Source: an uncultured Endomicrobiia bacterium (GTDB taxonomy: Bacteria > Elusimicrobiota > Endomicrobiia > DTEH01). Taken from it: 64,000 nt of DNA. The stretch spans positions 16,246-80,245 of the forward strand of contig CALFVX010000001.1 in assembly GCA_937928765.1 (NCBI GenBank). Reading direction: 5' to 3'. The notes beneath the pieces were generated by a model that saw nothing but the letters and a program-made list of their open reading frames with translations, did not search any database and was not told the origin of the DNA. This document shows positions 4,580-42,379 of the stretch, piece by piece. The position numbers and the translations under genes are program-made. The first letter of the stretch is position 1, and every line of letters starts with the position of its first letter.

Positions 4580-5194
4580 ATGAAGCTAAAAGTTAACCCG
4601 AACAGAATGAACTTGTTGAAGTTAAGAAAAAGGTTGAAGTTTGCAATTAGAGGACATAAATTGTTAAAAGATAAACAAGAACAATTAACTAAAGAATTTA
4701 ATAATCTAATCTTAAAACTTATAGAACTTAGATCGAATATAGAACAAAAACTTAATGAAATTTATTTATATGTTGAAGTTTTACATAAATATTTACCTAA
4801 AGAAATTTTTGAGAAATTGTGTGAAAAAATAAATTCTCTAAAATATTTTGAAGTAACAGAAGAAAAACAATCAAAGTTTAATTTGAAACAAAAAATATTT
4901 AAGATAAAAAAAATAAAAGAAAATTTTGAAATTCTTACCACAGATTTTTACTTTAACATCTTTGTAGTTAAAATGTTTGCTTTATATCCATTAATTTTAG
5001 AATTGTCTAATTTGGAAACACTTTGTGAACTTATTGCAAAAGAGTTGCAAACTATTAGAAGAAGAGTAAATGCTTTAGAATATGTGCTTATCCCACAAAT
5101 TCAACAAGGAATTAAAAATATATTAGGAAAATTAAATGAAATAGAAAGAACAAATATTATACAACTTATGAGAATAAAACAATTAATGCAATAG
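4580..5194 (+). CDS. V-type ATP synthase subunit D homolog (isolated)
   Basis: N-terminus MKLKVNPNRMNLLKLRKRLKFAIRGHKLLKDKQEQL matches the conserved V/A-ATPase D-subunit start (V.PTRMnLl.lK.rl..A.rGh.LLK.Krd.L). No other V-ATPase genes are nearby. Confidence 0.6.
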   Translation: MKLKVNPNRMNLLKLRKRLKFAIRGHKLLKDKQEQLTKEFNNLILKLIELRSNIEQKLNEIYLYVEVLHKYLPKEIFEKLCEKINSLKYFEVTEEKQSKFNLKQKIFKIKKIKENFEILTTDFYFNIFVVKMFALYPLILELSNLETLCELIAKELQTIRRRVNALEYVLIPQIQQGIKNILGKLNEIERTNIIQLMRIKQLMQ

Positions 5195-25764: not shown

Positions 25765-25793
25765 TTGACAAATTGCACTTTTTTGTATATTTA
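25765..25793 (+). promoter_or_regulatory. Sigma70-like promoter (TTGACA at about 25765-25770; -10 TATTTA/TATAT about 17 nt downstream) driving the riboswitch-led operon
   Basis: TAGTTGACAAATTGCACTTTTTTGTATATTTATATTAATTGG is nearly identical to the block at 55312-55350. Confidence 0.45.
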
Positions 25794-25841
25794 TATTAAT
25801 TGGCAGGGGCAACAAAAAGTTCTTAAAATATTAAGATTAAT

Positions 25842-25934
25842 TTCCTTCACGCGATAAAGGCAAACCCTGAGTAATCAGGGGGCGCAAAGCTATAGGGTCC
25901 TTCAGATGAGGGGCAGCCAGCTGCCGAAGGAAGG
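25842..25934 (+). promoter_or_regulatory. Cyclic-di-GMP-I (GEMM) riboswitch in the 5' leader
   Basis: CACGCGAUAAAGGCAAACCCUGAGUAAUCAGGGGGCGCAAAGCUAUAGGGUCC...GGGGCAGCCAGCUGCC carries the GEMM-I hallmarks GGCAAACC and GGCGCAAAGCUAUAGGG with a GNRA-like tetraloop hairpin. Flanking P1 strands UCCUUC/GAAGGA overlap the SD, and the ATG is at 25938. Confidence 0.7.
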
Positions 25935-25937
25935 AAA

Positions 25938-26399
25938 ATGAAAGTAGAAGAAAATTTTTTTGCTTTCAAAAAAACATTTTACAAAAATTTTACATACTCT
26001 TTCCTTACTTTACTTTTTAGTATAATACTTATAAAAAATCTTTTGTTATCAAATCATAACATACAAAACTTACCTAATAATGATTTAAAATTTAGCAAAA
26101 GCTCTTATAGCACTATAAATTTTTATTCTGAAGAAGGTATTATAGTTAATTTTCCTAATCCGTTTAGTAATTTCACTTATATTTATGTTAGATTGCCTAA
26201 AAAAGATGATTGTATAATAAAAATATACGATTTGTTTGGTAATTTGATTAAAGAATTTAATCTATCTGGCGAAGATAAATATATGTTGGTTTGGGATGGA
26301 AGAAATTTTAATTCTGAAAAGGTATCAAAAGGCGGATATATTTGTGTCTTACAATATAGTGGTAAAAAAATTATAAGAAAAATAGGTTATTTAAGATGA
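25938..26399 (+). CDS. Small membrane-anchored protein consisting essentially of a T9SS C-terminal sorting (CTD) / FlgD-Ig-like beta-sandwich domain
   Basis: FPNPFSNFTYIYVRL...CIIKIYDLFGNLIKEFNL...WDGRNFNSEKVSKGGYICVLQYSGKKIIRKIGYL matches the Por_Secre_tail / FlgD_ig consensus. There is no cargo domain. Confidence 0.55.
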   Translation: MKVEENFFAFKKTFYKNFTYSFLTLLFSIILIKNLLLSNHNIQNLPNNDLKFSKSSYSTINFYSEEGIIVNFPNPFSNFTYIYVRLPKKDDCIIKIYDLFGNLIKEFNLSGEDKYMLVWDGRNFNSEKVSKGGYICVLQYSGKKIIRKIGYLR

Positions 26400-28003
26400 A
26401 GCTAAATAACAACAATAATATCTTTTTTGTTTTTGAATTTAAAATAAAAGTATGGGTTATTATTTTTTTGTTTTTATTTAATAATATTTTACAATCTTCT
26501 TACACAGGAGGCCAACCTGCAGAATTTTTACAATTTGGTGCTTCAGCAAAAGGTATGGCTATGAAAGCATTTTTTTCTATTTCAGATGATGCATCTGCAG
26601 TATATTATAATCCAGCAGGACTTGTACAGTGTGATAGAAAAGAAATTTTAGCCTTGCATACTGAACTTTTTCCTAATACTCAAACAATATATGATTTTAT
26701 AGGTTTTGTTTATCCTACGATAAAATATGGTATTTTTTCTTTAGGGATTACACAGTTGTTATCTACTGGATTTGAAAAAATCGAGATAGAATACGATTCT
26801 TCTTCAGAGGATATCATCAGAATAGAAAATAAAGGTACTTTTGATGATAGACAAATTGCTATTTTGTTAGGTTATGCTAAAGAAGTTGTTGAACATATAA
26901 ATTTAGGTGTCGGGTTTAAATATATTTCTAGAAAGTTAGATATTTATTCTGATACAATGATAGGTAGCGATATTAATGTATTAGTGAGTGGACTAAATTC
27001 AAAATTGCCAAAACTTAATGTTGCTTTTGGAATAAAAAATTTAATTTCTACTAAAAGTGGCACTGAAGATAGTTTGCCTATAATATTTAAATTAGGCAGT
27101 TCCTATAAGTTTATGAGAGACAGGTTAGTTTTAGGTTTTGATATTGAGAAAAATATAAATTCAGAGTTGAAATGGATGTTGGGAACAGAATATTGGTTAT
27201 TGGAGTTTTTTGCTTTGAGATTAGGATTTGAAGGTTTGAGTTATTTAAAAGAAACAACTGCAGGATTAGGGTTTAAATATAAAGATTATCGCGTAGATTA
27301 TTCCTTTGCATATCACGAATTGGGTTTTTCTCATAGAATTTCTGCAGATATAAAATGGGGTAAATCAGTAAAATTTGACCGAGAAGAAGAGATAAAAAGA
27401 TTAATTAACGAAACCATTGCTTTGTATACTGCAGGAAAGTTTATGGAAGCTGCAAAAAAAGCCGAAACAGCATATCAATTAGATCCTAACAAAAAAGATG
27501 TTAAAAAAATTCTTGATAATTTACTTTTGATAACAGCTTATATTCGTTCTGCAACAGAAGATACTGAAGAACATCAGGGTATAAGAAGGGCAACTTTATC
27601 TTTGATGGAAAACGATTTTGCTGGAACAGTTAATGCTTTAAGATATGCATATTATAAGAATCCAACTAATAAATCATTACATCAACTGTTAAATCGTATT
27701 GAACAAATAGCTGGAATGACTCTTACCGAAGCTTATAGGGAAGAAGTTGCTGGTTGGTCTATAATAGATAAAAAGATTTATGAAGCAAGAGAAGATGTTT
27801 TAAATGGTAGATACACTGACGCCATAAGAAAATGTCAGGAAATACTTAATTTAGAGCCAAAAAATACAACTGCACTTGAAATTATGGGTTCTGCCTTCTT
27901 TATGATGAATGAGATAGATAAAGCAAAAGCTGTCTGGAAAAAAGTCTTAGAATTAGATCCAACGAACAAGGTTATACAACAATTTTTACAAGAATTAGAA
28001 TAA
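26396..28003 (+). CDS. Outer-membrane beta-barrel protein (FadL/PorV-like N-terminal motif) with C-terminal TPR repeats
   Basis: Signal peptide, then FGASAKGMAMKAFFSISDDASAVYYNPAGL, which is the FadL/TodX/PorV-type hallmark. It has an alternating beta-strand pattern, and the last ~200 aa are TPR-like. Confidence 0.5.
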   Translation: MKLNNNNNIFFVFEFKIKVWVIIFLFLFNNILQSSYTGGQPAEFLQFGASAKGMAMKAFFSISDDASAVYYNPAGLVQCDRKEILALHTELFPNTQTIYDFIGFVYPTIKYGIFSLGITQLLSTGFEKIEIEYDSSSEDIIRIENKGTFDDRQIAILLGYAKEVVEHINLGVGFKYISRKLDIYSDTMIGSDINVLVSGLNSKLPKLNVAFGIKNLISTKSGTEDSLPIIFKLGSSYKFMRDRLVLGFDIEKNINSELKWMLGTEYWLLEFFALRLGFEGLSYLKETTAGLGFKYKDYRVDYSFAYHELGFSHRISADIKWGKSVKFDREEEIKRLINETIALYTAGKFMEAAKKAETAYQLDPNKKDVKKILDNLLLITAYIRSATEDTEEHQGIRRATLSLMENDFAGTVNALRYAYYKNPTNKSLHQLLNRIEQIAGMTLTEAYREEVAGWSIIDKKIYEAREDVLNGRYTDAIRKCQEILNLEPKNTTALEIMGSAFFMMNEIDKAKAVWKKVLELDPTNKVIQQFLQELE

Positions 28004-28014
28004 TTTTTAGGAGG

Positions 28015-29922
28015 ATGTTTATGAATATATTGAAAACAAATATAAATTTTTATATAAAAAATTATATGTTAAAACATATAAGCAAAGTTTTAATCCTAAT
28101 TATTCTTGCCACATTTCTACACCCACAACAAACAATTCAACAACTTTCTGCAGATCAACAGATAACTCCGGCAATGTTGCTTGAATATGAAACCAAGTTG
28201 GAACAGCAAAGGACAGAATATGTACAAAAAAATATTCTTGATAAAATTTTTGGCCCCAATAGATCTACAGTAATGATAGATATTACTTTAGGATTAAAGA
28301 CAACTACTACAAGACAACAGGCTTCTGCAAAAAAGCTTGATGCAAAAAGAAAATTAGGAGATACAGAATATTTACTACCCGGTATACCAAAACCTGGTTC
28401 TATTGCAGAGTCAGCTGTTCCAGCAGAAGCAAAAGGTGAGGCATCTGGTACTGAAATTATCGGAGTAAATACAGAGATAGTTATACAAAAGCAGAGTATT
28501 ACTGTAATATATGATGAAAAAATCAAAGATAATAAAGTAGAAATGGTTAGAGATGCTATTGCAGCAGCATTAGATATAAGAAAAAAAGAAACAATAGTAT
28601 TTAAGAAAGCAAAGTTTACTACGAATGTTTTGGAAAAATTTTTTGAAAATATTTTGTTACCAAAATATCTTATACCTTTGATAATAACTTTATTGTTATT
28701 AATGTTTTTGTTTGGTCCCATAGCAGATTTTTTAAGAAATTATATAAGAATGTTAAGAGAAAGATCACCCACAGAAATTTCTATAGACTCTAAACTTGCC
28801 AAAGAAGGAGAGTCGCCAACTGAAGGATTAACAGGAGCAGCTGGTGCAAGTGGAGTAGGAGGTGTATCTACAGGGTTGACAGAGGAAGAATTACAAGAAA
28901 AAGAAAAAATTAAAAAAGAAGAAAAATATATACCATTTAGTTATATAGATGACAGTAATATAAAGAGGTTAACATACTTAATAGCAAAAGAGAAACCAGA
29001 AGATATAGCTATTGTGCTTAGCTATTTAAAACCAGAGTATGTTAAACAAGTAATTGAAAGTTTTAAACCACATTTGCAAGCAGAGGTAGCAGTTGCTTTA
29101 GCTCAAGCAAGAGAAATACCGCAAGAAGATATTGTTCGTATGGATAACTATGTAAAAGAAAGAATTGATTTTTTGGTTGGAGGTATGCATCATCTTATAG
29201 AGTTATTACAGAAAGTAGATAAAACTACCCGAGATAATATATTAGAGTATCTTAAAAATGAAAAACCAGATATATATCAAAAAGTTCGTCCACAAATATT
29301 TTTGTTTGAAGATATTATTGATATTCCTGATATAACTTTACAAACTATTATTCGTGAATTAAAACCAGAAAATATTGCTCGTGCTTTAAGAAATGCTCCT
29401 AAAGAATTAGTTGATAAATTTTTTAAAAATATGTCAGAAGGAGCACAGGCACTTGTGAGAGAAGAAATTGACTATGGAAGGCCAATGACAAAAGAACAAA
29501 TTGAAGAAGAACAGAATAAAATTGTAGAATTAATTAAAAGAATGGAACAAGAAGGAAAAATTTATATTAAAGAAAGAGGAAAAACTTTTTTAATTGATGC
29601 AAGCGAAATTGTTTCAGAAACACAAAGAAATAAAAAAACAAATATAGAAGAATCTTTAGGATATGAGTATTATATTCAAGGTATAGATTTTTATCAACAA
29701 GGTGATTTTGAAAATGCAGTAACATATTTACAATATGCAACAGAATTAGATCCACAATTAAAAGAAGCATATCAATATCTTGGAAATATTTATTATGAAT
29801 CAGGGCAATATCAAGAAGCATTGAATTATTACAAAAAAGTTATAGAGATTAATCCAGAAGATAAAGAGTTTGCTTTATGGGTTGAAGAATTTGAAAAATC
29901 ATTATCAGTATCATCAATGTAA
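28015..29922 (+). CDS. Two-TM membrane protein with periplasmic segment, cytoplasmic FliG-like (middle plus C-terminal torque-helix) domain and C-terminal TPR repeats
   Basis: IAIVLSYLKPEYVKQVIESFKPHLQAEVAVALAQ compares with FliG IALILSYLDPDQAA..L..E.L..EV..RIA. FEDIIDIPDITLQTIIRELKPENIARALRNAPKELVDKFFKNMSEGAQALVREEIDYGRPM...EEEQNKIVELIKRMEQEGKIYI compares with FliG FEDIVNLDDRSIQRVLREVD...ALKGA..ELREKF..NMSKRAAEMLREDLE..GPV...VE.AQ..I...RRL...GEIVI. Confidence 0.6.
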   Translation: MFMNILKTNINFYIKNYMLKHISKVLILIILATFLHPQQTIQQLSADQQITPAMLLEYETKLEQQRTEYVQKNILDKIFGPNRSTVMIDITLGLKTTTTRQQASAKKLDAKRKLGDTEYLLPGIPKPGSIAESAVPAEAKGEASGTEIIGVNTEIVIQKQSITVIYDEKIKDNKVEMVRDAIAAALDIRKKETIVFKKAKFTTNVLEKFFENILLPKYLIPLIITLLLLMFLFGPIADFLRNYIRMLRERSPTEISIDSKLAKEGESPTEGLTGAAGASGVGGVSTGLTEEELQEKEKIKKEEKYIPFSYIDDSNIKRLTYLIAKEKPEDIAIVLSYLKPEYVKQVIESFKPHLQAEVAVALAQAREIPQEDIVRMDNYVKERIDFLVGGMHHLIELLQKVDKTTRDNILEYLKNEKPDIYQKVRPQIFLFEDIIDIPDITLQTIIRELKPENIARALRNAPKELVDKFFKNMSEGAQALVREEIDYGRPMTKEQIEEEQNKIVELIKRMEQEGKIYIKERGKTFLIDASEIVSETQRNKKTNIEESLGYEYYIQGIDFYQQGDFENAVTYLQYATELDPQLKEAYQYLGNIYYESGQYQEALNYYKKVIEINPEDKEFALWVEEFEKSLSVSSM

Positions 29923-29957
29923 GAAAGGATATTCTTCCACATCAGGAGGAATTAAAA

Positions 29958-32900
29958 ATGAGTATATTTGATAATATAAAAAATAAGTTAAATAAAAAAG
30001 AAAAAACAGAAACAGATGATAAAATAGAATTTTCAAATAAAAATGACGAGTATATACAAACAGATATGAATGATCCTATTATGTTAAAAGAAAACATACT
30101 TGCACAGATAAGGTATCTTGAACAAAAAATACAACAAGAAAGAGAAGAATTAATAAATCATCTTAAGTCTAAGGAAGAAGAAAAGGTTTCTTTAGAAATG
30201 AAGTTAAGTAATTTAGAATATAAAATTAATTCTAATAGGAATAATTTTGAAAAAGAAATAGAAAAATTAAGAGCAGATTTAGAAAGAGAGTTCCAACGTT
30301 TAAATTCAGAATATAATGAAGAAATTTCTTCTTGGGAAAAGATGTTAAATGTTAAGCAGAACGAAATAGAACAGTTGAGAAACAAAGCAGTATTTGAAGA
30401 AGCACAAAATAAAATGTTATTAGAACAAAAACAACAAGAAGTTAAACAAGAGATAGAAAGATTACAAAATAATCTAAAATTGTTAGAAAGACAGTTTGAG
30501 GAAGAAAAGAGCAAGTTTCATAGACGAATAGAAGAAAAAGATGAAGAAATTTTTAAATTAAAATCTTTAATAGAACTTAAAGAAAAACAACTAAAAGTTG
30601 AAGAAGAGAAATTTTTGTTATCAGCAAAAGATTTAAATGCCAAACGGCTACAGCAGATAAGTGAGATGCAGAAAAAATTTGAAGAAAAAATAGAAAATTA
30701 TAAGAAGTTATATAAGGCAAAAGATGAAGAATTTTTTACTGTAAAATATGTTTTGGAACAAAAACATTCAGAATGGGAACAACAACAAAAAGAAATGATT
30801 TCAAATTTAGAAAAATCAAAGAAAGATTATGAAAACAGGATAGGTCTTCTTAAAGAAGAAATAAAAAGTCATCAACAAGAGTTTGAAAAATTAATACAAG
30901 AGAAAGAAGAAGAAATAAAAAAATTAAAAGTAGAAATTATGTTAAAAGAAACACAATTTAATTCATTGATAGAACAAAAAAAGAAAATATTGTTAGAAGA
31001 AGAACAAAAGATAAAACAACAACTTTTTGATATTGAACAGAAATTTACAAAAGAATATGAAAACTATAATAAGTTGATACAAGACAAAGATCAAGAAATA
31101 ATGCATTTACAACTGATACATCAGCAGCAGTTGTCTAAGCTTAGAGAAGATTGGGATATAAAGATAAAAAAGTTATATGAAGAAAAAGAAGAATTAGAGA
31201 AAAAGATTCCTGAATTAGTTTCACAATTAGAAGAGATGAAATCAAAAGTAGCAAGTATTATGCAAGAGAAGAAGAGTTATATAGCAAAAATAAAGAAACA
31301 GAATAATGAGAAATTGCAAGAATTGAAAGAAAAATTAGAAAATACAATTAAAGAGATGTTAGAAAAAAATCAAAAATCAGAACAAGAATATAAGTTAAAA
31401 AAAGAAGAATTTGAAAACAAAAAAAATACATTAAAAATAGCACTGCAACAAAAAGAGTTAGAATTAAAAGAATTAAAAGAAAAATTAGAAAATGAAATTG
31501 AAAAAGAAAAAAACAGAGTGTTTTTGTTTGAACAAGAAATGAGACAAAAAAATTTACCTTTATATGAAAAAGTTAGTTTATTAAAAGAGGAAATTAAAGA
31601 TACGGAGAATAAAATACAGGATATTTTAAAAGCAAAAGATAAAGAAATACAGCATATTAACTTTAAGTATGAAATGTTAGAGAAGAATTTACAACAGAGA
31701 TATAGTAATGAATTAGAAAGTATTCAAAATAAAAAAATTTTATATGAAGAAAGGATTCTTCAGTTAAGAAATGAATTGAGTAAAATAGAACAAGAAAATA
31801 ATTTGAAGCTACAACAATATGAAAATGAAATAAAAGAAATACAAAACAATATAAATTTTTTAAATGAAAAAACAGAAGTAGAAAAAAGGAAAATAATAGA
31901 AGAAAACGAAAAAATAAAATATCAGTTGAATGAAGAAATTAAAAAATTAGAATGTAGATTAAATGAACTTATAAAAGAAAAAGAACAAATACTTAGTTCT
32001 AAACAACAAGAGGTTGATAGCTTAAATAATAAAATTTTAAATTTAGAAAAACAAAAGTATACTGAGATTGAAATGTTAAATAAAGATTGGCAACAGGAAG
32101 AAGAAAAGTTAAAGTTTAATATTCAACAATTAGAAGAAATTATAAAAGCAAAGATGGAAGAATATAAGACAAAAGTTATTCAAAAACAAAATGAATTGGA
32201 TTTGTTGAAAGAAAAATTTGCTAAAGAAGATTCAAATACGAGAAAAGATGTTGATAATTTAAAAATAAATTTAGAACAACAAAACTTACCTTTAGTTGAA
32301 AAACAGAAAGAAATTTTAAAAGCAATAGATGAATTACAAAAGGAAATGCAAGAAAAAGTTATTGAATATGATAAAAAAATTAATGATTTAAAAATTGAGT
32401 TAGATGATAAAATAAAACAATTTTCTGACATTGAACAGAAAAAGAAACAAGAAATAAAAATCTTAAGAGAAAAACTTAAAAGTTATTTGTTTACAAAAGA
32501 AGCACGAATTAAAGAATTGCAGACAGAATATGAGGAAAGGATTAAGCAGATAGAAAAAGAAAAGCAAGATTTTATTTTAGAACATAACAAAAAAATTCAA
32601 GAGTTAGAAATGACAAAAGATGGCATTGTTGAAAAATATAATATAGAAAGGCAGAAATTATTAGAAAATATTGATAATCTCACAATACAACTTAATAATT
32701 TTCAAGAAGAGATGCCAGAAGTTATTTCTGAAAAAGAAAAGGAAAAAGAAGAGTTGATTGTGCAGCTACAACAAATACAGAAAGAATATGCTGAAAAATT
32801 TGAAAATTTAAAGAACATGCAGATTACTTTACAAGAAAGACTAGAAAAAAGGATAAATAATTATCAAAAAATTATAAATTCTTTAAAGGAAGAACAAGAA

Positions 32901-34766
32901 AGAAAGATATATCAAAAACAGCAGGAGTTTGATAAAGTTAAAGAAGAATTAAAAGAAAAAGAAAACAGATTGTTAGAAGAAATAAGAAATTTGAATGAAA
33001 AAAATACTACAGAAATTGATAGATTAAAACAACAGAAAGAAAATCTTATCAAAAAAATAGAAGAGTTAGAGGCCACAAGTAAACAAATAATTAATAAGTT
33101 AGACTCAGAAATATTACAGATTAAGACAGAAATTATATCTAAAAAAGAATCTTTTGAACAAGAATGGACATTAAAACAAACAGATTTTGAAGATTTAAAA
33201 AATTCTTTAAACATTGAAATAGAATCTTTAAAAGTTAAGTTAAAAGCTGAAGAAGATAATTATAAAATTAAACTTATTGAAAGAACACAAGCACTTGAGA
33301 ATCTTAAAAAAGAATATGAGAATAGATATCAGCAATTGTTAAATGAATTTAACAATAAAAAAAATGACTTTAATGTTAAAATAGAAAAATTAAATATTAA
33401 AATTGCAAATTTGGAAGAAGAATTGAGGTCAAAGCAAGATTATTATTCTGCTTTGCAAAAAGCTAAAAAAGAAGAGATAGATAATATAAAATCTGAACTT
33501 TCTAATTTGGAAATAAATACTAAAATTGAAGAAGAGAAAAGGCAAAAAGAACTATCTTTACAACAGCAGAAATTAAAAGAAGAATTGGAAATATTAAAAC
33601 AACAATTAGAAATACAACGTGATAAATATATTGAAGAATTAAATAATAAAATAGCTGAAGAACAAAAAATTACAAACGATTTTAGACAAAAAGAAAAAGA
33701 GCTATTAGAAAAAATGACTCAAATAGAGGAAGAATATAATACTAAGAAACAACAATATCAGGTAGAATTGTCAAAATTGCAGAAACAATTAAAATTATTA
33801 TCTGAACAAAATGAAAAATTAATATCTGAGTTGGATAAAGAAATAGAACAAAATAATACAAAGATTGCTTTAAAACAAATTGAATTTAATACAATGAGAC
33901 AAAAATTTGAATTTGAATTTAAGAAACTTGTTTTACAGTATCAACAACAGAAAGAAAAAATTATTAGAGATTTTAATAAAGAAAATGAAGAGTTGATAGA
34001 ATCAATAAAAACAAAAGAAAATGAAATTGATACTATAAAGATGAGATATAATATAAGACAAAAAAGTATAGATGAAGAAATTAAAAGAAGAAAAAATTTT
34101 ATAGTAAAAGAATTATCTGAGTTAGAAAATGAGATTAAAAATATGGAAAATGTCTATGATGTAAAAAGTAAAGATTATGAAATACAAATTAACAGGAAAA
34201 AAGATCTTATTTCAAAGTTGAAATCTGAATTAGATAAATTAATTTTTTGCTGGGATGAAGAAAAAGAAAAAATTCTTAAAGAGAAACAAGAAAATAAAAA
34301 ACAATTAGATGAAGAGATAAATATTTTAAAGCAGAAATTAGATGAATACAAAACATATATTAACGAACTCATAATGAAAATAGAATCAAAATTTAAATTA
34401 GAACAAGAATTACTTGATTTTAAAGATTTTGAATTTATCAAAGAAAAACATATAACTTATAATACATTAGATAAAATTTATAGCTTGGTTACAAAAGATA
34501 AAACTAAATCAGAAATTAAGTTCAATAAAAATTTATTAGATGAAGCATTGATGTATTTTGATAACAAACAGTATGATTTATCTATAAAAAAATTTTTAAT
34601 TTTATTAGAACAAGATAAAAACAACGAGTTGTTAAATCAATATTTAGCATTATGTTATTATAACATTAAAGATTTTAAAAAAGCTAAAGAATATGGATTA
34701 AAAGTTTTAGAAATAAATCCTAACAATGAAATTATTAAATCCTGGCTTAAAGAAATAATTGAATAA
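29958..34766 (+). CDS. Giant (1602 aa) coiled-coil protein with C-terminal TPR module
   Basis: Continuous E/K/L/Q/N heptad-rich sequence with no globular ATPase head, and a TPR-like terminus (QYLALCYYNIKDFKKAKEYGLKVLEINPNN). Strong AGGAGG RBS. Confidence 0.6.
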   Translation: MSIFDNIKNKLNKKEKTETDDKIEFSNKNDEYIQTDMNDPIMLKENILAQIRYLEQKIQQEREELINHLKSKEEEKVSLEMKLSNLEYKINSNRNNFEKEIEKLRADLEREFQRLNSEYNEEISSWEKMLNVKQNEIEQLRNKAVFEEAQNKMLLEQKQQEVKQEIERLQNNLKLLERQFEEEKSKFHRRIEEKDEEIFKLKSLIELKEKQLKVEEEKFLLSAKDLNAKRLQQISEMQKKFEEKIENYKKLYKAKDEEFFTVKYVLEQKHSEWEQQQKEMISNLEKSKKDYENRIGLLKEEIKSHQQEFEKLIQEKEEEIKKLKVEIMLKETQFNSLIEQKKKILLEEEQKIKQQLFDIEQKFTKEYENYNKLIQDKDQEIMHLQLIHQQQLSKLREDWDIKIKKLYEEKEELEKKIPELVSQLEEMKSKVASIMQEKKSYIAKIKKQNNEKLQELKEKLENTIKEMLEKNQKSEQEYKLKKEEFENKKNTLKIALQQKELELKELKEKLENEIEKEKNRVFLFEQEMRQKNLPLYEKVSLLKEEIKDTENKIQDILKAKDKEIQHINFKYEMLEKNLQQRYSNELESIQNKKILYEERILQLRNELSKIEQENNLKLQQYENEIKEIQNNINFLNEKTEVEKRKIIEENEKIKYQLNEEIKKLECRLNELIKEKEQILSSKQQEVDSLNNKILNLEKQKYTEIEMLNKDWQQEEEKLKFNIQQLEEIIKAKMEEYKTKVIQKQNELDLLKEKFAKEDSNTRKDVDNLKINLEQQNLPLVEKQKEILKAIDELQKEMQEKVIEYDKKINDLKIELDDKIKQFSDIEQKKKQEIKILREKLKSYLFTKEARIKELQTEYEERIKQIEKEKQDFILEHNKKIQELEMTKDGIVEKYNIERQKLLENIDNLTIQLNNFQEEMPEVISEKEKEKEELIVQLQQIQKEYAEKFENLKNMQITLQERLEKRINNYQKIINSLKEEQERKIYQKQQEFDKVKEELKEKENRLLEEIRNLNEKNTTEIDRLKQQKENLIKKIEELEATSKQIINKLDSEILQIKTEIISKKESFEQEWTLKQTDFEDLKNSLNIEIESLKVKLKAEEDNYKIKLIERTQALENLKKEYENRYQQLLNEFNNKKNDFNVKIEKLNIKIANLEEELRSKQDYYSALQKAKKEEIDNIKSELSNLEINTKIEEEKRQKELSLQQQKLKEELEILKQQLEIQRDKYIEELNNKIAEEQKITNDFRQKEKELLEKMTQIEEEYNTKKQQYQVELSKLQKQLKLLSEQNEKLISELDKEIEQNNTKIALKQIEFNTMRQKFEFEFKKLVLQYQQQKEKIIRDFNKENEELIESIKTKENEIDTIKMRYNIRQKSIDEEIKRRKNFIVKELSELENEIKNMENVYDVKSKDYEIQINRKKDLISKLKSELDKLIFCWDEEKEKILKEKQENKKQLDEEINILKQKLDEYKTYINELIMKIESKFKLEQELLDFKDFEFIKEKHITYNTLDKIYSLVTKDKTKSEIKFNKNLLDEALMYFDNKQYDLSIKKFLILLEQDKNNELLNQYLALCYYNIKDFKKAKEYGLKVLEINPNNEIIKSWLKEIIE

Positions 34767-34785
34767 TTAATAGGAGGACAAAATT

Positions 34786-37700
34786 ATGGCAGAAGAAAAA
34801 AACAAACAATTTGTTCCAAAACCACCATTGATTAATAAACCTGCTCAAGGGTTTATACAAAAACCGCCTTTGCCAAAAATTAATTTACCACAGTCACCAA
34901 AGATACAAGATAAATTACAACAAGGTATGGCTAATTCTGGAATATCATCTGCACCACAATTTTCAACTTCTATAGAACAACGTCTATGGGAAGCAGAACA
35001 AGCTAAAAGACAAATGGAAATTCAACTGCAGGAATTACAAAAAATGTTGTTGGAAGAAAGAGAAAAACTTATGATGCAGACTATAAAAACTAAAGAAGAA
35101 GAAAGTTTAGCTGCTAAAGTTGAAGAAAGTATTAAAGATATTCAAGAGAGGTTAAGAAGGGAGAAAAGAGAACAAGAACTTCAAGAAGAGAAAGAAAAGT
35201 TGTTGAAACAAATTAAAGAATTAGAGGAACGTCTAGTTAAAGAAAGAGAAACTTGGATTGAAACACTTAAAACACAACTTTCTCAAAGAGATTTACAAGA
35301 ACAACAAATAGAGCAACAGTATTTGTCTAAAATAAGAGATTTGGAATCAAGATGGCAAGAAGAAAAGTCAAAATTTCAATTTATTTTGAGGTCTAAAGAT
35401 GAAGAAATAAGTAAAATAAGAAATGAATATAAAATTTTAGAAGAAAAACTCAAAGCAGAAGTTGAAAAACAAATTTCCGAATACAAATTTGAAAAGAAAA
35501 ATTTTGAAACAGAAATTAAAAATTTAAAAACCATAATTGAAGATAAAGAAAAAGAAATAATTTCTTTAAAATCACAAATATCTACAATTATTTCAGAATC
35601 AAATATAAAAAAAGATAAAACAGATTTTGAATTAAAGAAAAGAGAAGAACATATTGCAAAATTACAAAGTATTTTAGATAATATGAAATCTGAAATTAAT
35701 GTTTTGAAAAAACAAAAAGAACAAAATGAAAAAGATTTTTTTATATTAAAAGCACAGATGGGTATAATACAAGCAAAACATAAAACAGAGTTAGAAAAAC
35801 TTTCTGAAAAAAAAGATTTAGAATTAAAATCAGTTCAACAATTAGTTGAGCAGTTAAAAAAGAATTTAGAAAACAAAAATGAGATAATTAAAAATTTAGA
35901 AGTGGAAATAGAAAACTATAAAAAAGAAAAAGAAAAATATGTCTCTGAAAAAGAGAATGAAATTAATATTTATAATGAAAAGCTAAATTCTATAGCCAGT
36001 TTATTGAAGAACAAGGAAGATTATATAAATAAACTTAACCAAGATTTTTCTAAATTAGTCCAAAATAAGGAAAATTTAGAAGAAAAATCTAAAATTTTGG
36101 AAGAAGAAAATAATAAACTTAAAGTTGAATTAGAGAAAAATCTACAGCAGAGAGATGCTGAATCTAAATTGTATCAACAACAAATTTTAGAACTACAGAA
36201 ACAAATTAATGATAAAATCAATTATGTTATGAAATTGGAATTAGAATTAGACAAAAATAGATCTTATTTATTACAGAAGGAACAAGAAAATAATAATCTT
36301 AGGTTAGAATTAAATAGCTTATTGCAAGAGATAGAGTTAAATAAACAAGTAGTTGATGAAATAAAAAAAGAGATATTACTTAAAGATGATCTATTAAGGA
36401 ATTTAAATTTTGAGTTAGAGAAGACAAAATCTAATTTAGAAAAGAAAATTTTAATATTAGAACAGAAAGAAAAAGAGTTAAAACAAATTTTAGAAAAAAA
36501 TGAATACTTAGAAAAAAGTTTAAAACATAAAGAAGAATTGGAAGGAAATTTAAAAGATTTAATAGATAAGATGAAAACAGAAATATCTAAGTTAGAAAAT
36601 GAAATAAAAGTTTCAAAAATAGAAAAGGAAAAGTTAGAAATAGAAGTTAAGAGATTTTTAGAACAATATGAACTAGAAAAAAATAATAATCAATTGCTTG
36701 TTTCTCAACTTCAGGAGAGTAAAGTTAATATAAACAAATTGGAGTTGCAATTAGAAAAATATAAATCAGAATTAGATTTGGCTAATCAAGTGTTGTCAAA
36801 CAGAGAGAAAGAAATAGATAACTTTAAAGAGATTAACATAAGTCTTAAGCAAGAATTGGTAATTAAAGATGAAAAAATTAATAAGATAGAGAATGAAAAT
36901 AAATTACTTATATCAGAATTAGAAAGAACAAAAAATGATTTTGAATTATATTTAAATGAATACAATAAAATTAAATTAGAGTATGAGAAATTAAAAAATA
37001 ATTTTAATGAAGAATTAAACAAAGTAATTTCTGAAAAGTTATTCCCTTATGAAGAACATATTAAAAATATAGAATTTGAAAATCAGAAGTTATTGCAAGA
37101 GCTACAAACTAAGAATACAAAAATAGAAGAATATATAGACTCTATTAAAAATTTAAGTCAGAAGCTAGATAATTTATATAAAGATTATGAAAAACTACAA
37201 CAAGAAAACCAGCAAAAAGAGCAAAATATTTTTTCTCTTAGAGATTTAATTTCAGATTTACAACAAGAAAAAGATAAATTTTTAAAAGAAATAAAAGATT
37301 ATGAATTAGAATTAATAAATAAAAATAATAAAGTTTACGAGTTATCAGAATTAGTTCAGCAGAAAGAAACTGAGATTAAGAAATTTTCTGAAGATATAGA
37401 TGTTTACACTAAGGAAATTAATAATTTAATGTCTACCATAGAAAGCCTCAATATTAAAATAAAAGAACTAGAAGAGAAAAGTAAAGAAGAGAAAGAAAGC
37501 TTGATTTCTGAAAAAAGAATTTTAGAACAAAAGGTAAAAGATCTAATTGAAACAAACGAAGAAAAAAAAGAAACAATTTCAAGAATAAATTCAGAATTAG
37601 ATAATATTAGGAAGAAATATGAACAAGAAAAATTGCAAATTGAAAAACAATATAATGAAAAATTGGAAATTTTGCAAAAAAATCATGAGACTACAATAGA

Positions 37701-37983
37701 TAAAATAGATATTGCTTGGAAAAGGATACATTCAAAATTATTAAGTGAATATCGTTTGTTGGAAAAAAAATTGAACCAAAAAGATGAAGAAATATCAAAA
37801 TTAAAATCAAGATTAGAAACAATAAGTTTAGCTAATGATATTAAGAACAATAAAATTAAAGTGAAAAATTCAAAAATTATAAGTGAAGAAGATGGTGTTA
37901 TTGATATTAACACAAGATATGATAAGAAAAATTTGTTTTTAAGAATTTGGTTGTGGTTAAATAAGCCAATATTGAAAATATAA
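34786..37983 (+). CDS. Giant (1065 aa) coiled-coil protein with Pro-rich N-terminus and hydrophobic C-terminal tail
   Basis: N-terminus PKPPLINKPAQGFIQKPPLPKINLPQSPK, a ~950-aa heptad coiled coil, and a C-terminal NLFLRIWLWLNKPILKI. GGAGG RBS located 19 bp after the upstream stop. Confidence 0.6.
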   Translation: MAEEKNKQFVPKPPLINKPAQGFIQKPPLPKINLPQSPKIQDKLQQGMANSGISSAPQFSTSIEQRLWEAEQAKRQMEIQLQELQKMLLEEREKLMMQTIKTKEEESLAAKVEESIKDIQERLRREKREQELQEEKEKLLKQIKELEERLVKERETWIETLKTQLSQRDLQEQQIEQQYLSKIRDLESRWQEEKSKFQFILRSKDEEISKIRNEYKILEEKLKAEVEKQISEYKFEKKNFETEIKNLKTIIEDKEKEIISLKSQISTIISESNIKKDKTDFELKKREEHIAKLQSILDNMKSEINVLKKQKEQNEKDFFILKAQMGIIQAKHKTELEKLSEKKDLELKSVQQLVEQLKKNLENKNEIIKNLEVEIENYKKEKEKYVSEKENEINIYNEKLNSIASLLKNKEDYINKLNQDFSKLVQNKENLEEKSKILEEENNKLKVELEKNLQQRDAESKLYQQQILELQKQINDKINYVMKLELELDKNRSYLLQKEQENNNLRLELNSLLQEIELNKQVVDEIKKEILLKDDLLRNLNFELEKTKSNLEKKILILEQKEKELKQILEKNEYLEKSLKHKEELEGNLKDLIDKMKTEISKLENEIKVSKIEKEKLEIEVKRFLEQYELEKNNNQLLVSQLQESKVNINKLELQLEKYKSELDLANQVLSNREKEIDNFKEINISLKQELVIKDEKINKIENENKLLISELERTKNDFELYLNEYNKIKLEYEKLKNNFNEELNKVISEKLFPYEEHIKNIEFENQKLLQELQTKNTKIEEYIDSIKNLSQKLDNLYKDYEKLQQENQQKEQNIFSLRDLISDLQQEKDKFLKEIKDYELELINKNNKVYELSELVQQKETEIKKFSEDIDVYTKEINNLMSTIESLNIKIKELEEKSKEEKESLISEKRILEQKVKDLIETNEEKKETISRINSELDNIRKKYEQEKLQIEKQYNEKLEILQKNHETTIDKIDIAWKRIHSKLLSEYRLLEKKLNQKDEEISKLKSRLETISLANDIKNNKIKVKNSKIISEEDGVIDINTRYDKKNLFLRIWLWLNKPILKI

Positions 37984-42274: not shown

Positions 42275-42294
42275 TTATTCTTATAAAAAATTTT

Positions 42295-42379
42295 GCCGCG
42301 AGAGGGAGTCGAACCCTCATCCCGTTAAACGGGACTGGTTTTTGAGACCAGCGCGTATGCCAATTCCGCCATCGCGGCA
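42295..42379 (-). tRNA. tRNA-Leu (anticodon CAA), class II with long variable arm
   Basis: Reverse complement GCCGCGA-UG-GCGGAAUUGGCAUACGCGC-UGGUCUCAAAAACCAG-UCCCGUUUAACGGGA-UGAGGGUUCGACUCCCUC-UCGCGGCA folds as a cloverleaf. The 7-bp acceptor, anticodon loop CUCAAAA and T-loop UUCGA are all present. Confidence 0.85.

Follow-up and report, generated by a model that had tools for sequence, protein, structure and literature searches.

A predicted c-di-GMP-I riboswitch that probably masks the Shine-Dalgarno sequence of an envelope operon in an uncultured Endomicrobiia bacterium

In a 64,000-nucleotide (nt) stretch of DNA from an uncultured Endomicrobiia bacterium (GenBank assembly GCA_937928765.1, contig CALFVX010000001.1, positions 16,246 to 80,245; hereafter the window, meaning this whole stretch), an RNA element ends at position 25929, 8 nt before the ATG (25938-40) of the first gene of an operon. 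Judged from sequence, segment 25850-25929 is a class-I cyclic di-GMP (c-di-GMP; GEMM-I) aptamer and is predicted to bind c-di-GMP. We consider it probable that the aptamer belongs to a canonical c-di-GMP riboswitch that controls translation initiation of the first operon gene as a translational OFF switch; through coupling, this control probably extends to the whole operon. The operon itself appears from its sequence relatives to be an uncharacterised envelope cluster conserved across the phylum Elusimicrobiota. The parts of the proposed switch are as follows.

25850-25929, + strand: c-di-GMP-I aptamer, identified by cmscan, our own covariance model R1, covariation and invariant core columns
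25841-25848, + strand: anti-Shine-Dalgarno strand UUUCCUUC, the 5' strand of an extension of helix P1, identified by the RNAfold minimum free energy (MFE) structure, energy evaluation, and conservation with compensatory change
25926-25937, + strand: purine tract GAAGGAAGGAAA, the sole Shine-Dalgarno (SD) candidate, which is also the 3' strand of P1 (25926, 25929) and of its extension (25930-37)
25938-26399, + strand: first regulated open reading frame (ORF), 153 aa, with an N-terminal signal/anchor and a type IX secretion system (T9SS) type-A C-terminal sorting domain

We used cmscan to compare the whole window with all 4227 families of Rfam 15; only two matches reached the gathering score, one to a tRNA and one to an aptamer of clan CL00126. 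The aptamer match covers 25850-25929 on the + strand at full length (model positions 1-80 of 80) with 66.3 bits (E 1.9e-13), a strength so far beyond chance that we take the aptamer to be real. Segment 25850-25929 is a G+C island (57%) within a window of 25.7% G+C, and model R1 scored the window aptamer at 71.3 bits. Its helices are listed here.

G25853-C25925, C25852-G25926 and C25850-G25929: consensus pairs of aptamer helix P1
25860-85: aptamer helix P2, with a GNRA loop, GUAA, at 25871-74
25888-25922: aptamer helix P3

The consensus pairs of P3 are AGCU 25888-91 with AGCU 25919-22, GG 25895-96 with CC 25917-18, and GUCCUUC 25897-903 with GAGGGGC 25908-14. The nucleotides equivalent to G20, A47 and C92 of the Vibrio cholerae riboswitch Vc2 are G25859, A25886 and C25924, located within the conserved strings GGCAAACC, CGCAAAGC and GCCGA. 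The numbering of A47 and its contact with the ligand come from Vc2 crystal structures. The ligand-contact roles of Vc2 G20 and C92 have been described (PMC11705072). The CCUAAG/UAUGG receptor found in the RF01051 consensus is absent from the window P3, and the GUAA loop of P2 conforms to GNRA; a helical receptor for this loop within P3 is possible.

A protein from a metagenome-assembled genome with the NCBI label 'Candidatus Omnitrophica bacterium' has 100% identity to the downstream 635-aa protein, whose homologues are nearly all from Elusimicrobiota/Endomicrobiia. We scanned genomes with an alignment of the 635-aa protein and obtained 80 loci (L-numbers below), all of them from Elusimicrobiota and including Elusimicrobium minutum. 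These loci were searched for aptamers with a regular expression and then with covariance model R1, which was built from 33 aptamers (alignment A3). The search identified 61 strong matches in 53 of the 80 loci, all on the coding strand and 1.7-2.6 kb upstream of the FliG-like gene. In A3, 94.8% of cells in paired columns are paired, as against 81.0% in column shuffles (0 of 500 reached the observed value) and 34-48% in slid controls, and in twelve pairs both partners have changed. The outer P1 pair, C25850-G25929 in the window, occurs in A3 as GC (11), GU (7), UA (4) and UG (3), while the contact-nucleotide columns and the core are invariant. Across the orthologous sequences, the P1/P2/P3 structure is strongly supported by covariation.

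An initial annotation, made from the letters of the window alone, had identified a GEMM-I riboswitch here, and the covariance-model match, the covariation among 33 sequences and the canonical ligand-contact nucleotides all agree with that identification. The elements that it quoted occur where it placed them: GGCAAACC at 25859-66, the hairpin CCCUGAGUAAUCAGGG with its GUAA loop at 25865-80, and GGCGCAAAGCUAUAGGG at 25881-97. Its second stem, GGGGCAGCC with AGCUGCC, is not P3, since both strings lie on the 3' side of that helix. Within 25912-25925, GGCAG (25912-16) might pair locally with CUGCC (25921-25) in a 5-bp hairpin, as a competitor of P3 and P1, and this hairpin may be what the second stem was drawn from; GGCAG occurs again at 25802-06.

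The position equivalent to Vc2 G20 is G in the window (G25859) and in 54 of 64 orthologous aptamers, and A in the other 10 orthologues (GAUAAUAGCAAACC). An A at this position is a signature linked to GEMM-Ib riboswitches that sense 3',3'-cyclic GMP-AMP (3',3'-cGAMP).

L065 5265-5347 (E. minutum), with L055, L058, L080, L011, L056, L062, L068, L071 and L078: aptamers with A at the G20 position

The highest-scoring Rfam label of the window aptamer is RF03167 (c-di-GMP-I-GGC; 66.3 bits against a gathering score of 59), and this label bears on the choice of ligand. The initial annotation had pointed to RF01051; membership in class I held, and the top family is a different one. Because cmscan output gives the best family per clan in both gathering and E-value modes, a second family can be hidden, and one further, lower-scoring family of clan CL00126 did exceed its own gathering score at the window aptamer. 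The two consensus lines (RF03167, ...GGGACGC-G-AAgCc...; RF01051, ...GACGC-A-AAgCc...) have one systematic difference in the core, from which we deduce that the 'GGC' label stands for an A47-to-G change. At this diagnostic column (RF03167 model column 37) the window has A25886, not G, and the match line is blank; hence, despite its RF03167 score, the window aptamer is not a GGC variant.

The same label was given to four relatives, all of which read CGCAAAG and each of which has a hidden second clan match.

L007 2278-2360; L033 5021-5111; L081 602-683; L092 2006-2088: relatives with aptamers labelled RF03167

Six other loci (L006, L032, L055, L058, L065 and L082) are labelled RF01051, with 55-62 bits against a gathering score of 35. 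The RF03167 model includes P1 and has a short, receptor-less P3, whereas RF01051 leaves P1 unpaired, and comparison of the models suggests that the extra RF03167 bits most likely come from the modelled P1 and the short P3, features unrelated to ligand choice. A regular-expression match that made L041 appear to be a 'GGC' orthologue proved to be an insertion artefact, as the sequence reads GGGCGCAAAGCC. That the element is a c-di-GMP-I-GGC variant with a ligand other than c-di-GMP is thus suggested by its best-scoring family and by the label shared with L081, L092, L007 and L033; we nevertheless find this reading extremely improbable, given that A rather than G occupies the diagnostic column in the window and in every RF03167-labelled relative, that all 64 orthologous aptamers examined have A at the A47 position, and that a second clan family passes its gathering score each time. 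The case amounts to an annotation trap: RF03167 outscores RF01051 on aptamers with the canonical A47, and automated pipelines would wrongly call them ligand variants.

Based on RNAfold analysis of 25836-25950, UUUCCUUC at 25841-48 and GAAGGAAA at 25930-37 form an 8-bp helix directly outside the consensus P1. The aptamer with this extension was evaluated at -34.2 kcal/mol and the aptamer alone at -23.1 kcal/mol, and the contribution of the extension helix is about -8 to -11 kcal/mol. The window flank duplex is stronger than 98.5% of those obtained with 1000 shuffles of the 5' flank; the 8-mer TTTCCTTC is expected by chance about 5.9 times per window, counting both strands. With the aptamer enforced, the probability that 25930-37 is unpaired, P(unpaired), is 0.05. 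We found no other SD and no alternative start for the first ORF, the N-terminus of which (MKVEENFF / MKVEENFFAFKK) aligns with those of relatives, and a search of the + strand for a terminator-like site found none.

The initial annotation had proposed that P1 overlaps the SD, pairing UCCUUC (25843-48) with the first six nucleotides of GAAGGAAGGA (25926-35), ahead of the ATG at 25938. These strings are placed correctly, and the tract is, as proposed, the only plausible SD, with no alternative ribosome-binding site (RBS) or start and with an N-terminus aligned with relatives. The 3' strand of P1 and its extension does coincide with the SD tract, in a register 4 nt further downstream than the one proposed. 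The upstream register (25843-48 with 25926-31) is less stable, at -32.4 kcal/mol, or -28.8 kcal/mol with the conserved G25853-C25925 pair kept, and it is incompatible with the conserved C25852-G25926 pair; L081 and other relatives do not have GAAGGA directly after CCG, so that conservation is limited to the downstream register. The tract GAAGGAAGGA consists of a short repeat and can therefore pair in either register, with the SD buried in each.

All modelled states contain a predicted 13-bp AU/GU hairpin at 25939-25968, which takes in the start-codon UG and the first ten codons. We rejected it as part of the platform because it forms in all of these states and because it coincides with the conserved EENFF coding sequence, of which it is probably a by-product.

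Closer relatives were obtained by a metagenome scan with the PorV-like protein, and four of them (L081, L082, L092 and L094) carry the aptamer. The helix between anti-SD and SD is formed in L081 by AUUUCCUUC with GGAGGAAAU, in L082 by GUUCCUUC with GAAGGAAU, and in both L092 and L094 by UUCCCUUC with GGAGGGA, where a U-A pair of the window and L081 is replaced by C-G. The flank duplexes of these relatives are stronger than 97.8-100% of 1000 shuffles (fraction as stable or more, 0.000-0.022). In L006, the partner of the same SD is UUAGGUUCCUUUC, which lies farther from the aptamer, with two hairpins inserted in between. The anti-SD:SD helix is therefore kept in five relatives, genomic or metagenomic (L081, L092, L094, L082 and L006).

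Other relatives (L001-L005, L085, L087 and L090) are syntenic and retain the promoter and the first leader bases, and they have no aptamer, no anti-SD and no SD-like purine tract.

L001 4734-4860: example of an aptamer-less leader, compared with window 25811-25937

The joint absence of aptamer, anti-SD and SD in these relatives suggests that the three elements behave as one cassette, and its presence or absence among close relatives within one clade provides a natural experiment on gain and loss of riboswitch control. Occlusion of the SD, which the initial annotation had also proposed, gains comparative support from a helix that is kept with compensatory change and is lost together with the aptamer. 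The same comparison bears on whether the element could be a decaying relic without function. The aptamer is missing at the same promoter in L001-L005 and in seven metagenomic relatives with 71-76% identical operon proteins, as might be seen during decay; however, every invariant core position is intact in the window, and the aptamer is retained in L081 and L092 (83-84% protein identity), where both distal P3 and the anti-SD helix have undergone compensatory substitutions. This pattern points to purifying selection on structure, and we regard a relic as very unlikely.

For the window, we propose that binding of c-di-GMP would lock P1 and, coaxially, the anti-SD:SD helix, and that the locked helix would block the 30S subunit, turning translation OFF at high c-di-GMP. 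Modelling makes this direction the most likely one and our best estimate. Class-I c-di-GMP riboswitches of both polarities exist, and Vc1 is an ON switch. The cGAMP switch of pilM is also ON (PMC9262584). An ON switch in the window, in which ligand binding frees the SD, would nonetheless have to accommodate a ligand-bound fold that needs P1 and an SD with P(unpaired) of 0.05 once the aptamer is enforced: aptamer formation promotes the anti-SD:SD helix, which is nested directly outside P1, rather than disrupting it. We also found no structure that masks the SD in the ligand-free state only, and we give the ON alternative very little credence.

The main output of a c-di-GMP riboswitch might instead be transcription polarity, with Rho-dependent termination inside the operon, or decay of the operon mRNA. 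The genes of the operon are coupled over 12 kb, and when translation of a first cistron is repressed, sites for Rho or RNases are often uncovered; in some relatives, the aptamers are tandem and stand 100-300 nt away from the following ORF, so that the family has other platforms. In the window, however, no intrinsic terminator is present, the P1 extension encloses the SD, and anti-SD and SD covary; any effect of Rho or RNase would for this reason be secondary to blocked initiation, and polarity or decay as the main mode of action is unlikely.

How the SD becomes available without ligand is the more tentative part of our proposal, and it depends on the 5' end of the transcript. The features considered are the following.

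25765-25793, + strand: sigma-70-type promoter, with -35 TTGACA at 25765-70, -10 TATTTA at 25788-93 and a 17-nt spacer
25800-25810, + strand: 5'-terminal leader strand UUGGCAG-G-GGC, a candidate anti-aptamer
25821-25836, + strand: predicted AU-rich leader hairpin, UCUUAA-AAUA-UUAAGA

The window, L001-L006, L081, L092 and L094 share TTGACA and an AT-rich -10 region (in L006 as TTGACA-16-TATAAT), and from these conserved sequences we infer a transcription start at about 25798-25802. UUGGCAG.GGC (25800-10) is complementary to CUGCCGA (25921-27) and GCC (25916-18), which belong to the P3 3' strand, the C92 equivalent and the P1 3' strand. For transcripts starting at 25790-25802, the MFE fold contains this pairing of 25800-10 with 25916-27, P(unpaired) of 25930-37 in the free ensemble is 0.72-0.93, and forming the aptamer from the free ensemble costs +5.8 to +6.7 kcal/mol. 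Without ligand, the pairing would dismantle the binding pocket and leave the SD single-stranded, turning translation ON, and it would also tune the apparent ligand affinity. With a competitor of ~6 kcal/mol, an intrinsic pM-nM affinity like that of Vc2 would presumably shift towards sub-micromolar to micromolar. The same anti-aptamer pairing is predicted in L081, L092 and L094, and the aptamer-less relatives have UUGGAAGGG in place of UUGGCAGGGG in the 5' leader. From this modelling, the conserved 5'-terminal strand may act as an anti-aptamer.

Several observations weigh against the switch as proposed, in whole or in part. The anti-aptamer pairing shows no covariation, the four sequences that have it being identical there; the L006 prediction does not contain it, and L082 offered no clear complement. 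The 5' element is also retained in part by relatives that lack the aptamer, and its role may therefore be a different one. We treat the anti-aptamer as a candidate because of this lack of covariation, its absence in L006 and L082, and a transcription start that is predicted from promoter sequence. A second promoter-like site (TTGGCA at 25800 and TAAAAT ending at 25829; score 10/12) would place the start at about 25836, in which case the SD would be mostly paired without ligand (P(unpaired) 0.20-0.32) and, on this model, the switch would be weak. The long flank duplex is not general across 57 orthologous aptamers (mean z -0.2). For the window, we infer both ligand binding and the direction of regulation, and a search of all six frames for GGDEF motifs found none in the window, so that c-di-GMP synthesis in this organism is assumed.

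Other arrangements of aptamer and start codon occur among the orthologues. The long flank duplex is confined to Endomicrobiia-type relatives and, in the form that has the start codon in P1, to the groups of E. minutum, L061 and L062. Measured from ...CCGAA to the start codon of the long ORF that follows, the spacing is 1-6 nt for 36 of 57 aptamers and 9 nt in the window. The start codon lies within lower P1 in L065, L055 and L058 (UAUAGU with A/GCUAUG; UAUAGU/ACUAUG in L065), in L061 and L067 (UAUCG with CGAUG), and in L070 and L059 (UUCAU with AUGAA). In several Endomicrobiales genomes, tandem c-di-GMP-I aptamers precede the same operon, often 100-300 nt from the next ORF, which indicates that the family has further expression platforms. 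High-GC Elusimicrobia have a GC-rich hairpin shortly behind the aptamer, ~20-45 nt into the PorV-like ORF; covariation is seen in its stem (CCAGGGG/CCCCUGG, CCAAGGGC/GCCCUUGG and CUUGGGG/CCCCAAG) while the encoded residues change, and the hairpin may be part of the expression platform there.

L008 4482-4572 and 4718-4809, with L009, L010, L011, L012, L013, L014 and L044: tandem aptamers
L042 about 5170-5190, with the equivalent site in L050, L060, L073, L032 and L043: hairpin inside the PorV-like ORF

The operon continues beyond the first ORF with overlapping or tightly spaced ORFs, as listed here (TPR, tetratricopeptide repeat; TM, transmembrane).

26396-37983, + strand: operon downstream of the first ORF, with synteny across Elusimicrobiota
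26396-28003, + strand: PorV/PorQ-family outer-membrane barrel with a C-terminal TPR (NF033709, 109.9 bits against a cut-off of 90)
28015-29922, + strand: protein with a FliF RBM3/collar-like domain, a TM segment, FliG middle and C domains, and a TPR
29958-34766, + strand: 1602-aa protein with a C-terminal TPR and no informative family
34786-37983, + strand: 1065-aa coiled-coil protein with no informative family

The product of the first ORF (25938-26399) matches Pfam PF18962 with 27.3 bits and TIGR04183 with 25 bits (cut-off 23). The product of 28015-29922 contains FliG domains (FliG_C PF01706, 5.5e-29; PDB 3ajc/1lkv, E about 1e-37), and its N-terminal domain, which precedes the TM helix and the FliG domains, has an alpha-beta-beta-alpha-beta arrangement with long strands. 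Based on Foldseek analysis of its AlphaFold (AF2) model (mean pLDDT 75), the N-terminal domain matches the FliF RBM3/collar structures 6sd3 and 6sd1 (E about 1e-3), and the model also matches FliG. This natural FliF/FliG-like fusion is conserved across Elusimicrobiota. The PorV/PorQ-TPR barrel and the small protein encoded before it, which carries the T9SS type-A sorting domain, represent T9SS-like parts in an Elusimicrobiota genome. The genes after 38055 encode M16 peptidases and a solute-binding protein, and the gene block after the operon ends with a tRNA at 42294-42378 on the - strand (85 nt, with a long variable arm and a CAA anticodon loop; tRNA-Leu-like).

The initial annotation had described the regulated genes as a motility-like module. 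The FliF/FliG-like protein fits that description; we found no other flagellar gene in the cluster, which contains PorV/PorQ-like and T9SS C-terminal-domain proteins, and the term is therefore only partly apt. A bolder reading is that the cluster encodes a phylum-wide Elusimicrobiota envelope machine, such as a new rotor-like motility, secretion or adhesion apparatus, that is shut off by c-di-GMP, with control by 3',3'-cGAMP possible in lineages with A at the G20 position, e.g., E. minutum. We hold this reading only tentatively and think it more doubtful than not; if it is true, the riboswitch is the first functional handle on a rotor-like Elusimicrobiota envelope machine.

The RNA class and the logic of SD masking are textbook, and the aptamer is an ordinary class-I member; its value lies in the genomic context. 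An aptamer stands before the same cluster in at least 53 of 80 sampled Elusimicrobiota genomes, which would assign an unannotated cluster to a cyclic-dinucleotide regulon and provides a testable clue to its role, plausibly in a decision between surface or motile and sessile states. A literature search on riboswitches and on FliG in Elusimicrobia turned up no paper that connects Elusimicrobiota, the cluster and a riboswitch, and the link between a riboswitch and this conserved envelope cluster appears not to have been described previously.

Among known systems, Vc2 (V. cholerae, upstream of tfoY) shares with the window its aptamer class and the contact nucleotides G20, A47 and C92. The length and stability of P1 govern ligand binding by Vc2 (PMC11705072), which, according to the account of Inuzuka 2018 given there, has been reported to repress translation by RBS masking. 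In Vc2, however, the RBS is distant from the aptamer, whereas the window SD directly adjoins the 3' strand of P1, with the ATG close by; the P2 loop is GAAA in Vc2 and GUAA in the window, and the window P3 is without the 11-nt CCUAAG/UAUGG receptor seen in the RF01051 consensus. Cd1 (Clostridioides difficile, flgB operon) is likewise OFF at high c-di-GMP and precedes a long operon with flagellar-type genes (PMC9262584), but it acts by terminator/antiterminator exchange during transcription, in contrast to the predicted SD sequestration without a terminator in the window, where the operon is not flagellar.

The RF03167 variants resemble the window aptamer in giving the best covariance-model score, in their short receptor-less P3 and in a modelled P1, and differ from it at A25886, where they have G. 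The GEMM-Ib riboswitches for c-AMP-GMP (Geobacter, e.g., pilM) use the same scaffold; the equivalent of G20 is a selectivity determinant among cyclic dinucleotides (PMC9262584, PMC7266159), and the window has G25859 there in place of the A of GEMM-Ib. Control through an anti-RBS strand is known in general (PMC9481103). Parallels in layout are aptamers that hold the RBS themselves, e.g., SAM-II/SAM-V and preQ1, in which, as proposed for the window, a ligand-stabilised helix contains or abuts the SD or start codon and no separate platform is present; those classes have another fold and ligand, and the window has an extra anti-SD helix that extends P1.

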